Part shown: piece after piece, positions 6,608 to 43,486 of the stretch
How positions within the stretch are numbered: position 1 is the stretch's first letter
Layout of the letters: each line of letters opens with the position of its first letter
Virus record (IMG/VR): IMGVR_UViG_3300001687_000020
DNA: 45,879 bases
Reading direction: 5' to 3' (one strand)
Origin: a virus
Lineage: Duplodnaviria; Heunggongvirae; Uroviricota; Caudoviricetes
Notes under the pieces: model-generated
The model's input: the letters and a program-made list of their open reading frames with translations, nothing else
What the model was told of the DNA's origin: nothing
Database searches by the model: none
Made by a program: the position numbers and the translations under genes

Positions 6608-7011
6608 AGGTAGATATTAGATAGGATTTTTACTAACTAACAAATAGTTTCCATGGTCGATCCTTGATCATTACATAAGAATGCCCGAGTGTTAGTAAGA
6701 ACTATATATTCTTCACCATTTGAAAGTTTACACCCAATCCTTACCACTGGGACAAAACATTCGTTTTCAACACCCTTAACTTTCTCTACCTCTTCATCAA
6801 TTACTATTAAATTAGCTTCATCTGACTCAGAAAAAGTTCCATCCTCTAACTTATAAGTACCATCTTTCACATTATAAAGAGTATCTCCAGTAACTAGCCT
6901 TTCTATATTATCAATAAACCACCAATCTCTAAACTGATTAATACCTTTGATTTTTAGTAACATGTGTTTTCTACCTTCCTTCCTATCTACCTAGCTATCT
7001 AATATCTACCT
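6608..7011. repeat. Perfect 17-bp inverted repeat (6608-6624 / 6995-7011) flanking the 6637-6963 gene
   Basis: aggtagatattagatag vs ctatctaatatctacct; on the minus strand the downstream arm ends in T6 (6603-6608). Confidence 0.95.
6637..6963 (-). CDS. Accessory hypothetical protein (FLCNDQGSTME C-terminal motif)
   Basis: 108 aa; C-terminal AFLCNDQGSTMETI resembles the YLxNDxGKTIE motif of small non-structural phage proteins. Confidence 0.8.
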   Translation of the reverse strand: MLLKIKGINQFRDWWFIDNIERLVTGDTLYNVKDGTYKLEDGTFSESDEANLIVIDEEVEKVKGVENECFVPVVRIGCKLSNGEEYIVLTNTRAFLCNDQGSTMETIC

Positions 7012-9160: not shown

Positions 9161-9754
9161 CTATTTCCTTAGCCTATGAGTATAAACATTTTCTTCGTTG
9201 AAAGAATACTTTATCTCATAATCAAATCTATTTGGATTCAAAACAAACCTTGGAATTATAAAACTACCTAAATGATAAAGTAAACATTTAGTAGTATCTA
9301 AATATCTTATTTTATCATCAACATATATCATGACCCAAGCATGCTTATCAGCTAATACCACTCTTGCCTCAAACTCATACTTTCTCAATATAGAGCAAAG
9401 TAGTATTGCTTGGTCTTCGCAGTCTCCGGTTCCTTTCTTTAAAGTTACTACTGGGTCTTGCCAAATGTCATCTACTTTTTGACCTTCTTCATAGTCTTTT
9501 TTATAACCAATATTTAAAAAAACTGACAAAGCAATCCAATATGGATGTTTAATGAATACATCATATTTAATCTTTTTAAATATTAAAGTAGTCCATCTTA
9601 CAGTTTGAATTTTTCCTATTCCTACTTCTGCTTTACAATATTTTTTAGTTATAAGTTTTCTATTTTCTATATCTTCTCTATCAATCTCTTTCCAATATAG
9701 AGGATTAAATATATTTATGCTCTTAAAAAATGTTTTTACTTTAGTTAGATCCAT
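9161..9754 (-). CDS. Transglutaminase-like cysteine protease
   Basis: 197 aa; GTGDCEDQAILLCSIL, HAWV, YLDTT give a Cys-His-Asp triad. Confidence 0.85.
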   Translation of the reverse strand: MDLTKVKTFFKSINIFNPLYWKEIDREDIENRKLITKKYCKAEVGIGKIQTVRWTTLIFKKIKYDVFIKHPYWIALSVFLNIGYKKDYEEGQKVDDIWQDPVVTLKKGTGDCEDQAILLCSILRKYEFEARVVLADKHAWVMIYVDDKIRYLDTTKCLLYHLGSFIIPRFVLNPNRFDYEIKYSFNEENVYTHRLRK

Positions 9755-12243: not shown

Positions 12244-12256
12244 TAATAGTTTGTTC
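12244..12256 (-). promoter_or_regulatory. Putative late promoter GAACA-AACTAT-TA
   Basis: Plus strand taatagtttgttc, upstream of the RBS of 11757-12224. Confidence 0.75.
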
Positions 12257-12299
12257 TGTCAAAAAATTCTACTCGTCACTCTTCTTTCCAACTATTAGG

Positions 12300-12579
12300 T
12301 TCTCCCTTTGTAGGGGAAAAATACATAGATTTTAATAAGTCTAAGAAAAATCTTAATCTACTTTAAAAGAGACTTTAACTAAAACAGATTTTTCTCAGAA
12401 CCGTTCTAGAAGTTCATAGTAAATTTATTTCATATCAGTATAGGGCATTTCTTATAGAAGAATATCACATAGAACTGTTCTGAAAACTTAATCAGTCTTA
12501 AAATATTACTTTTGATAAGTTAAAGATTTTCAGTTCGGTTCTGAACATTTTATAAGAAATTGCCCCTACAAAGGGAGAA
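12300..12579. other. Non-coding palindromic element, candidate ncRNA / MITE-like element / origin
   Basis: 17-bp perfect terminal IR (12300-12316 / 12563-12579), internal AGAAC-n-GTTCT palindromes, long internal hairpin 12441-12568; no ORF of 60 aa or more. Confidence 0.6.
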
Positions 12580-12592
12580 AAAAATTTAATCC

Positions 12593-12766
12593 TTACTTAG
12601 AACTCTTCTCGATCTTATGACCAAGACCCACAATACCCAAAGCTGCTCCAAGCATAAGAAGTGCATTACCAACTTCAACTCTACCAAAAAACTCTAAGAC
12701 TGCAGCAATACCAATAATTCCTGCCGCAGTCCAAGTTTTCCAACCACCCATAATGTCTTTAAGCAT
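12593..12766 (-). CDS. Small two-TM protein (holin-like), 57 aa, absent from ORF track
   Basis: RBS AGGAGG; MLKDIMGGWKTWTAAGIIGIAAVLEFFGRVEVGNALLMLGAALGIVGLGHKIEKSSK. Confidence 0.85.
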   Translation of the reverse strand: MLKDIMGGWKTWTAAGIIGIAAVLEFFGRVEVGNALLMLGAALGIVGLGHKIEKSSK

Positions 12767-12775
12767 TCTATCCTC

Positions 12776-13588
12776 CTAGTTTAAACAAGTCCCACAATTC
12801 GAGCAAAAATTAGACCCAGAAGAAGAAGACCTGCCACAAGTAGAGCAAGTCAACTTTTCCCTAGTTAAAAGAGGCTTTTGAATAGGGACTTGTTCTTCGG
12901 TTATGCCTCTTAACTTAAGAGTTATAACATGAGAAATTCCTAACCCTCCAATTGTAGTAGAATCAAACTTTTGATTACTATGAGATCCTTTAACTGTAAT
13001 ACCTTCATCTTTTTGGATATCTCTAATGTCAGCCTGCATATTTAAATTCTCAGCTTGATTACAACATTTAGTAGAGTTATAAAAAGAATGAACTCCTCTT
13101 GATAAATTTTCAGTAGTACTACTCAAATAACTCCAACCAATACCTGGTTCAAATTTACCAGAATAAGTCGATGTTCCGCAAGGAAAATCACTTTTTATAG
13201 TAAAAGGATACCCTGTATAATACTGATAGTGTTCCTCAAACTGAAATTCTACTCTGACTATTCCATCGTCAATTCTATCGCCTCGGTAATTAGCAATCTC
13301 TCTAGTTTTCTGAATAAACTTAAACTTATTGCTTACGTCACTTCCTTTGAGAAATCCCTCTAAAAAGAGAGTATTTTCCCTTCCTGGACCACTTCCAGGA
13401 ATAACAAGTCGGGAGCGATCTAAGACATCCTGACCATCAATAGAAACTTTTACTATCACCCTCCTTGAGTCCATGTTTTTTAAACCAATTGAATATTCTG
13501 ATCCAAATGGTAAAGAAACATAGCCATCTTTTTCTCTCAGAGTTTGACCATTACATTGAATTGTGACTATAAAATTACTAGTAAACAT
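12776..13588 (-). CDS. Conserved-type phage protein with C-terminal double zinc ribbon
   Basis: 270 aa; LPFGSEYSI.LKN...VSIDGQDV N-domain and CSTCG...FCSNCGT C-terminus; RBS AAGGAGG. Confidence 0.85.
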   Translation of the reverse strand: MFTSNFIVTIQCNGQTLREKDGYVSLPFGSEYSIGLKNMDSRRVIVKVSIDGQDVLDRSRLVIPGSGPGRENTLFLEGFLKGSDVSNKFKFIQKTREIANYRGDRIDDGIVRVEFQFEEHYQYYTGYPFTIKSDFPCGTSTYSGKFEPGIGWSYLSSTTENLSRGVHSFYNSTKCCNQAENLNMQADIRDIQKDEGITVKGSHSNQKFDSTTIGGLGISHVITLKLRGITEEQVPIQKPLLTREKLTCSTCGRSSSSGSNFCSNCGTCLN

Positions 13589-13676
13589 TACTTCCTCCTT
13601 TTAACAGGTTACTGACTAGAACCTCTCAATTCTTAAAGTCAGTTGGAAAAGGTTAGAGTGACGAGTAGAAACTATA

Positions 13677-37441: not shown

Positions 37442-37457
37442 TCTGAGGAGGAAGGAG

Positions 37458-37925
37458 ATGGATTTTCCAAGAATTTATCTTTATGGTTTACGATTAAAAT
37501 GGACAAAATTGATAATACGAAGGAAAGATATTCTTCAAATTATCTATACTTACTATTTATCTAAGTTCAAAGATATTATAACATTTGGAGATTTTAATTA
37601 CTTCATTACTTATGAAAATCCATCTCCTCACCATCTCAAACCATCAGAATTGGGTCCTATACGTATATTTGGTTTAAATCTACATATAGCGATAGGACCT
37701 AATTCTGAGAACAATTTTAGACCTAGATTATTATTTATAGCTAGAGAAGTTTTTAGTTTCCGAAAAATAGATATGTTTACACCTCGGGATTTACAGGAGA
37801 GAGAAAAAACGTCAGAGATGCTCAAAGTTTTCTATATTGACATAGATCCATTGAAACTGGATAGGGTAGAACATTATAGTGAATTGGGAGAGAAAAAATT
37901 CATTTATAAAGGACTTTCAAAATGA
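37458..37925 (+). CDS. YxxYL paralogue family member
   Basis: 155 aa; LQIIYTYYLSKFK; YLYGLRLKW and GPIRIFGLNL shared with next ORF. Confidence 0.8.
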   Translation: MDFPRIYLYGLRLKWTKLIIRRKDILQIIYTYYLSKFKDIITFGDFNYFITYENPSPHHLKPSELGPIRIFGLNLHIAIGPNSENNFRPRLLFIAREVFSFRKIDMFTPRDLQEREKTSEMLKVFYIDIDPLKLDRVEHYSELGEKKFIYKGLSK

Positions 37926-42589: not shown

Positions 42590-42675
42590 TGAGTCGGAAT
42601 AAGTGTTATCTTAGTTTTGTCCTGGGATCATGGGGAGGACGAGATTGAGTATACCTTATTCCGACTTATTTTTTT
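42590..42675 (+). terminator. Very long hairpin plus U7, terminator of the plus block
   Basis: Arms 42590-42623 / 42636-42668, about 32 bp with several G-U pairs valid on plus; followed by a T run; lies between convergent genes. Confidence 0.8.
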
Positions 42676-43486
42676 AGCAAAAATTTTGGATAAATTTCTT
42701 AACTCTATTATGAACTTCTTGACATGTGGGAGAGATAGTATTAATTTCTAATATTTTCCAACCTATACTTCTCAAATGTTTTTTTCTAGACTCTGGGTTT
42801 ATAGCATATATATCATTATGCCAGAAAACTTTTGAGAACTCTATATCTATTTGTCTAGAAGGAATTGTCATATCGGTTACATATTGAAAATTAATATCTC
42901 CACCCAAAGCCTTGTCTACTATAGTTTTATCACATTCGATATCAGGATAATACTTTTTTAAATATAAATAGATTTCTTCTTTAGTATCATATTGGATAGG
43001 AGAAATATTATAGTTAGTATCTTTATGTTTGGATAACTCAATACTTTCCATCTCTTCCATAAATTCTTTTCGAACTTGCTCTCTGATTTCTTCTATAGTT
43101 AAAGTTCCACCTATAGGTTGAGTCATGTGAATATCAACAGATGATTCATTTGATGAAGCTATGACTGACCCTCTAGATGGAGCAATTCCTAATTCTTCCC
43201 GAATATATTCTTTTGCTTTATCAGTAATAAAATCTCTAACTCTAGCAGATGCAGAAGTGACTTTTCCTTCTTTATTAGTGACTATCACATGAACAAATTC
43301 TTCGCTTGCTCTTAGTTCTTCAATTTTTAATTTACTAATAGGAAAACCAGGATACTTATTATGATATTCAGCTAATGACATATTATGAAATTTTTTCATA
43401 TGGTTATCATTCAAAATTCTAAATGCTTGACCACATTCCTGACATATAACGAGTCCGTCTTCATCATACTTAGCATACATATTCAA
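42674..43486 (-). CDS. Zn-finger plus Vsr/DUF559-like endonuclease domain protein (homing-endonuclease-like)
   Basis: N-terminal CQECG..F..L...H....H; C-terminal DMTIPSRQIDIEF..VFWH...LRSIGWKILEI. Confidence 0.65.
   Translation of the reverse strand: MNMYAKYDEDGLVICQECGQAFRILNDNHMKKFHNMSLAEYHNKYPGFPISKLKIEELRASEEFVHVIVTNKEGKVTSASARVRDFITDKAKEYIREELGIAPSRGSVIASSNESSVDIHMTQPIGGTLTIEEIREQVRKEFMEEMESIELSKHKDTNYNISPIQYDTKEEIYLYLKKYYPDIECDKTIVDKALGGDINFQYVTDMTIPSRQIDIEFSKVFWHNDIYAINPESRKKHLRSIGWKILEINTISPTCQEVHNRVKKFIQNFC

Follow-up and report, generated by a model that had tools for sequence, protein, structure and literature searches.

A covarying leader pseudoknot and an end-closing helix form a candidate cis-acting RNA element on a zinc-ribbon gene family of giant phages

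We analyzed a 45,879-nt stretch of DNA from a myovirus-type phage (the window), which is part of a 53.8-kb record and encodes a tail sheath and an endolysin by PHROGs; no tRNA or tmRNA was found in it. The locus studied here contains a gene for a 270-aa protein, a gene for a 57-aa membrane protein and a 280-nt folded element, all enclosed by two distant arms that pair into a long helix (P0), while a pseudoknot occupies the leader of the 270-aa gene (Table 1). A sequence-only reading of the window had listed the same two reading frames and the same inner element within the stem, and all three are found where it placed them; the leader pseudoknot, which turned out to be the most conserved part of the locus, was absent from its picture.

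Table 1. Features of the locus, in window coordinates
Feature	Position	Strand	Remarks
GAACA-N6-TA, AR9-type late-promoter-like site for the next gene	12244..12256	-	AR9 consensus
U6 tract	12261..12266	-	After the 3′ arm; terminator-like in the window phage
3′ arm of P0	12267..12293	-	Partner of 13641-13670
Orphan self-complementary element, 280 nt	12300..12579	.	17-bp closing stem; AGAAC-N-GTTCT palindromes at 12397 and 12471
57-aa holin-like protein gene	12593..12766	-	Two hydrophobic segments; Shine-Dalgarno overlaps the stop codon of the 270-aa gene
270-aa protein gene	12776..13588	-	Beta-sandwich, long disordered insert, C-terminal Cys4 zinc ribbon; DUF7918-like
Shine-Dalgarno AGGAGG of the 270-aa gene	13594..13599	-	6 nt after the pseudoknot, outside both stems
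Leader pseudoknot	13606..13642	-	S1 = 13642-13637 with 13617-13612; S2 = 13624-13620 with 13610-13606
5′ arm of end-closing helix P0	13641..13670	-	16 bp outer and 9 bp inner; last two bases overlap pseudoknot stem S1

P0 combines an exact 16-bp inverted repeat (13655-13670 with 12267-12282, minus strand) with a 9-bp inner helix (13641-13649 with 12285-12293, minus strand), separated by a 5 × 2 internal loop, or 4 × 1 with one G-U pair, and its 3′ arm runs directly into six U. Three exact inverted repeats of at least 16 bp within 2 kb are present in the window, compared to a mean of 0.10 and a maximum of 2 across 300 dinucleotide shuffles. The arms and the U tract agree with those quoted in the sequence-only reading. 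When the whole 1.4-kb RNA was folded, the pair probability was about 1.0 for the outer helix and 0.4–0.98 for the inner one.

We then compared arms across the gene family, using about 180 fetched loci reduced to 145 distinct proteins, and assessed P0 at each of 129 homologous loci against mismatched pairs at the 1% and 5% levels. P0 is present in 41 of 129 loci below the 1% level and in 64 below the 5% level, compared to 4 of 303 neighboring other genes; these locus counts, like those for the pseudoknot below, are not phylogenetically independent. The examination of the 270-aa family in other phages, which had been suggested along with the original description, thus shows that the stem recurs. 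The best complement of the region 60–90 nt before the start codon is found 2–35 nt after the stop codon, and family-wide the median P0 has a core of 13 bp, with 10 nt separating its 5′ arm from S1 and 10 nt separating the stop codon from its 3′ arm. Its arm sequences are wholly different between lineages, its occurrences are scattered over the protein tree and about half of the loci lack it, among them those of XacN1 and Xoo-sp13, where there is an ordinary terminator. The loops of the other family members hold no membrane gene. The window is the only locus with a distant partner arm (+493), because two passengers sit within its loop; when distant 3′ arms were sought in loci without a near arm, none was convincing except that of the window (−33.1 kcal/mol versus a null minimum of −21.7). 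With the 280-nt element folded, the last stop codon is about 20 nt from the 3′ arm, near the family geometry. By sequence comparison, the long stem belongs to the 270-aa gene family, as its conservation around that gene alone indicates, and a third to a half of the relatives are predicted to pair the ends of this mRNA.

Inverted repeats flanking genes, around a gene that occurs in several neighborhoods, could also mark an invertible segment or a mobile cassette acting at the DNA level. The non-Watson-Crick positions in P0, read on the coding strand, comprise 25 G-U and only 3 A-C; therefore, the pairing occurs in the sense-strand RNA and not in DNA. The arms are also bulged and share no sequence common to the lineages, while four other assemblies across the junction are colinear, so that neither the strand-neutral conserved repeats nor the inverted forms of an invertible segment were seen. 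We consider a DNA-level role close to negligible.

A different reading treats the stem chiefly as an intrinsic terminator whose two halves are separated by whole genes. Both long stems of the window end in six U followed by a late-promoter-like site, as does an ordinary terminator at 9844-9807. Across the family, however, a U-rich tract follows only 6 of 64 stems and is missing after the other 58, many stems lead straight into the Shine-Dalgarno of the next gene, and the pseudoknot is left unexplained, making this reading very unlikely. A second role of the window’s P0 as a long-loop terminator is nonetheless plausible, since six U and a promoter-like site follow it as they do at a 108-aa gene (6608-7011), but it would be a local feature rather than a family rule.

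P0 occurs behind a promoter-like AGAACA site and also in mid-operon, between a cold-shock gene and the next gene. Family transcription starts were inferred from the AR9 late-promoter consensus, AACA-N6-TA/G (PMC5312081), to which the match is loose; on this basis, 34 of the 35 loci with such a promoter have a P0 that starts between −4 and +8 relative to the inferred start. In relatives, the family gene is preceded by ATATATAGT-AGAACA, and the window carries intergenic GAACA-N6-T(A/G) sites that fit the AR9 consensus on its minus strand at 12256, 9781, 6596, 2407, 29387 and 44020. A sigma-70-like site at 13708-13680 would place the transcription start at the 5′ arm; it was set aside, since shuffles contain such sites at least as often.

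Several other features of the window were recorded. A second gene-bracketing stem (6608-7011, minus strand) places 17-bp exact arms around the orphan 108-aa gene, followed by U6 and GAACA-N6-TG, and has no pseudoknot; the 91- and 106-aa genes that flank the 108-aa gene have a C-terminal repeat in common. At 37453-37628 (plus strand), the first arm of a 15-bp exact inverted repeat lies over the end of the Shine-Dalgarno and the start codon of a 155-aa ORF at 37458, with its partner arm 146 nt inside that ORF. A transglutaminase-like cysteine protease gene is located at 9161-9754 (minus strand) and another gene for a 270-aa protein, with a ROS/MucR-type zinc finger, at 42674-43486 (minus strand).

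The 57-aa protein carries the signature GWKTW...GLGHKIEK and has no match in Pfam, PHROG or NCBIfam. Its homologues are encoded in tightly packed operons, often right behind a transglycosylase, hydrolase or M15 peptidase gene in Mu-like lysis regions, and with its two hydrophobic segments the gene can reasonably be called a holin-like passenger, which agrees with its first description as a small hydrophobic protein inside the stem. The 280-nt element folds on both strands, with z-scores of −5.2 (minus) and −6.9 (plus). An exact-arm search for it returned four matches, all without the partner arm, a palindrome-pair search returned seven unrelated tandem duplications and no homologue, and the downstream gaps of homologous loci showed no similarity to it. 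Its inner stem (12300-12316 with 12563-12579) carries TGTAGGGG/CCCCTACA, which resembles, in reversed order, the P0 of a large clade of relatives (L023, L033, L052 and L093); the resemblance may be due to chance. Separately, 400–650-nt intergenic gaps lie between the family gene and the next gene in several relatives (L009, L012, L034, L050, L066, L092 and others); they share sequence between loci and could hold further RNAs.

In type I toxin-antitoxin systems of the hok/sok kind, fold-back pairs the 5′ and 3′ ends of the mRNA, and some antitoxins, as in txpA/RatA, overlap the 3′ untranslated region of the toxin gene. The sequence-only reading had proposed a comparable toxin-antitoxin or lysis-timing module; in a module of this type, the fold-back would silence the 57-aa protein and the 280-nt element would be the antitoxin. 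A small hydrophobic ORF does lie within an RNA predicted to be end-paired, though in the window phage only, and the inner element does fold on both strands within the 3′ untranslated region. However, the predicted accessibility of the 57-aa gene’s Shine-Dalgarno is 0.75–0.76 with or without either arm, which speaks against silencing, and P0 covers no ribosome-binding site. The stem and the membrane gene are not co-conserved: P0 is kept where there is no membrane gene, and the 270-aa family appears in 0 of 14 loci of 57-aa homologues. The protein has two hydrophobic segments instead of one, the tight operons of its homologues leave no space for an antitoxin behind the lytic enzyme genes, and no antisense gene was found. 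We therefore retain one part of the proposal, a predicted end-paired module at the RNA level, which the G-U bias and the family-wide P0 support, and abandon the toxin-antitoxin or lysis-timing part, as the stem is kept around the 270-aa gene alone; a module of that type is highly improbable. Even combined, the terminator-only, toxin-antitoxin and DNA-inversion readings account for a small share of the probability.

Between the 5′ arm and the Shine-Dalgarno, nearly all homologues carry a 32-nt pseudoknot core. The leader consensus opens with CAA and the 6-nt 5′ strand of S1, which ends in GACU. An A-rich loop starting with UUAA leads to the 5-nt 5′ strand of S2; after 2 nt comes the strand complementary to the first six bases, then a single nucleotide, the strand complementary to the five, and lastly AGGAG behind a short A-rich spacer. 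In the window as well, an A-rich loop starting with UUAA links the 5′ strands of S1 and S2. The pseudoknot was parsed in 138 of 142 non-redundant loci, about five of these being mis-parsed yet recovered by eye or by the model. Covariation was tested on a structure-blind MAFFT alignment of 127 leaders cut by their distance from the start codon. In these leaders, 98.9% of 1393 cells pair and all 11 pairs change on both sides, with double-sided changes in 382 cells compared to 85 when shuffled, while slid-partner controls pair at 23–40%. The non-Watson-Crick positions are again G-U (43) rather than A-C (4). No column of the alignment is invariant, with U44, A48 and A49 conserved at 96–98%, and base identities in S1 and UUAA are kept beyond what pairing needs. 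Based on these comparisons, the motif is a predicted cis RNA element with a conserved 5′–3′ helix.

Loop 1 measures 7–89 nt and tolerates whole hairpin inserts, whereas loop 2 is 2 nt and loop 3 is 1 nt; therefore, a classical H-type stack is impossible. In the likely geometry, by analogy with known kissing loops, a 9-nt hairpin loop receives the 5′ strand and the A-rich loop extends alongside both stems. The end of S2 lies a median of 18 nt from the start codon (range 11 to 49 nt), and the Shine-Dalgarno stays outside both stems. One lineage (L157, L181, L186, L121, L118 and L178) has hairpin inserts of 57–89 nt in loop 1 together with a longer A-rich spacer to the start codon, of 42–49 nt. 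We also considered whether the CCU of S2 might act as an anti-Shine-Dalgarno and discarded the idea, as it would form only 3 bp and is missing in variants.

The pseudoknot accompanies a single gene. A DNA-only pattern search of IMG/VR gave 67 matches, of which 65 precede the 270-aa family, one is truncated where its contig ends and the last precedes an endonuclease gene inserted next to the family gene. With the covariance model, a single copy turns up in the window and in each of two long records of 119 and 224 kb. Four cultured phages carry the family gene (XacN1, as ORF366, Xoo-sp13, RAS14 and CM1), and in the three complete genomes inspected, those of the Xanthomonas and Stenotrophomonas phages XacN1, Xoo-sp13 and RAS14, the knot occurs once per genome (3/3), with a compensated change between XacN1 and Xoo-sp13. 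In one record (L211:21-862), a gene for a 215-aa PD-(D/E)xK-like endonuclease sits between two pseudoknot copies; the family gene follows immediately and keeps a copy of its own. Searches with Rfam covariance models, at gathering or E-value cut-offs, gave no match in the window or in about 25 loci of homologues. The motif is thus uncatalogued as judged by Rfam, though it may be listed in surveys of 224 motifs or 10,000 candidates.

The 270-aa protein has 1,248 homologues at about 40–47% identity, and its family comprises at least 1,317 clusters at 50% identity (E 1e-30), nearly all viral; these searches indicate that it is widespread in giant phages. The family gene sits in several different neighborhoods and frequently adjoins tail sheath genes. 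The zinc ribbon named in the first description is a weak Pfam match (E 8e-4, below the cut-off), yet its four Cys are invariant across 120 homologues, which bears the assignment out. In the AlphaFold model (pLDDT 81), a beta-sandwich interrupted by a disordered insert is predicted with confidence, along with the zinc ribbon. Foldseek found no match for it in the PDB at E 0.001, and a VIA structure comparison gave a best Z of 7.4 to a generic Ig-like fold, with no resemblance to a known RNA-binding protein. Among predicted folds, it matches a bacterial DUF7918 (PF25534) cluster at TM 0.57, unlike at the sequence level, where Pfam gives no DUF7918 match, and it matches proteins of Marseillevirus, Pithovirus, iridoviruses and nudiviruses, baculovirus P22.2 and WSSV wsv390 at E 2e-12 to 1e-4. 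We found no established molecular function in the literature for DUF7918 or for the look-alike virus proteins. From these models, it is possible that DUF7918, the phage proteins and those of eukaryotic large DNA viruses form a pan-viral superfamily so far unrecognized. The zinc ribbon also has weak matches to ribosomal bL32 (E 0.016); no gp32 match was found in Pfam, PHROGs or PDB, and longer fused forms were not found, which is weak evidence.

The nearest known system is the gene 32 operator of T4, T2 and RB69, a leader pseudoknot that binds gp32 in T4 (PMC3014915, PMC535899) and was described in a 2010 review as possibly the sole viral pseudoknot used in translational autoregulation (PMC3014915). 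In both cases, a leader pseudoknot lies 5′ of the Shine-Dalgarno of a single gene (here 65 of 67 matches, in single copy per genome) that encodes a zinc-containing protein, an A/U-rich sequence with UUAAA is present, and a homing endonuclease gene can be a neighbor (segG in T4, the L211 gene here). The two differ in that the present knot threads a 5′ strand into a downstream hairpin loop, with a long A-rich loop 1 and a 1-nt loop 3, and ends a median of 18 nt before the start codon, compared to 67 nt upstream for gene 32. UUAAA is inside the present knot, with no repeats 3′ of S2, while gene 32 has 3′ repeats; the 270-aa protein is not an SSB; and gene 32 has no 5′–3′ closing helix. The present motif may work like the gene 32 operator but, on this comparison, is not that operator.

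The motif is kept before one gene only, across hosts and rearrangements, and therefore most simply binds that gene’s product; its persistence across unrelated phages and gene contexts likewise points to a partner that travels with the gene. The RNA structures most likely set the amount of the 270-aa protein that is produced. The reading we favor, to which we give slightly less than an even chance, is a cis-acting translational control element, an autogenous operator for its own zinc-ribbon product, on an end-paired mRNA. The pseudoknot would be a protein-binding translational operator at which excess product blocks ribosome loading, as T4 gp32 does on its leader, while P0 would delimit and stabilize the message and keep the stop codon no more than about 20 nt from the operator. 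In the window phage, the holin-like gene and the self-folding element would have been added inside the P0 loop, and the U6 tract would let P0 double as a long-loop terminator. Against an autogenous operator, the protein lacks a basic character, with a family median pI of 6.7 and net charge of −1, and its fold is unlike those of known RNA-binding proteins; P0 is missing from about half of the loci, which counts against the end-paired part.

The association with one gene also fits a structure-only stabilizer or enhancer, in which the pseudoknot and paired ends yield a long-lived or highly translated message independently of any protein, by blocking nucleases, by providing a ribosome standby site or by serving as a processing stem that releases the gene from a polycistron. 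The Shine-Dalgarno outside both stems, a P0 that begins at the inferred 5′ end and persists in mid-operon, and the second window gene bracketed alike without a pseudoknot are consistent with such an architecture. A generic stabilizer should nevertheless recur before other genes, whereas the motif occurs once per genome and stays with one family, and the base identities conserved in S1 and UUAA exceed what pairing demands. This explanation is possible, though on the unlikely side. The pseudoknot could instead recognize a small molecule, in the manner of a riboswitch, or a different factor from phage or host; it is compact, adjoins the ribosome-binding site and has the conserved columns U44, A48 and A49. 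Yet no column is invariant, the distance to the start codon varies widely, Rfam has no match, only one gene family is served and the Shine-Dalgarno is neither overlapped nor sequestered by the structure as in a translational riboswitch. We regard a foreign ligand as improbable.

The paired ends invite one further interpretation. The RNase III stalks of pre-rRNA are long-range processing stems that close the ends of stable RNAs. P0 resembles them in having two distant arms around a kilobase-size RNA, with sequences that differ between lineages, but it brackets a protein-coding gene and its median 13 bp is short for RNase III. In a closed-loop mRNA of bacterial type, P0 would bring the stop codon next to the leader pseudoknot. 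The protein, with its zinc ribbon synthesized at the end of translation, would then act in cis on its own message, or ribosomes would return to the start they came from; alternatively, the bracketed RNA would be excised and persist as a stable and possibly circular molecule. We judge such a closed loop to be rather unlikely; if true, it would be a conserved gene-scale RNA architecture new for phage mRNAs, attached to a fold common to large eukaryotic DNA viruses.

For the autogenous operator and its alternatives alike, a strongly covarying motif of uncommon topology accompanies a family of at least 1,317 clusters, and the cultured carriers XacN1, Xoo-sp13 and RAS14 make it testable at once. 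The leader motif provides a first handle on a fold of unassigned role that extends from jumbo phages to giant viruses.
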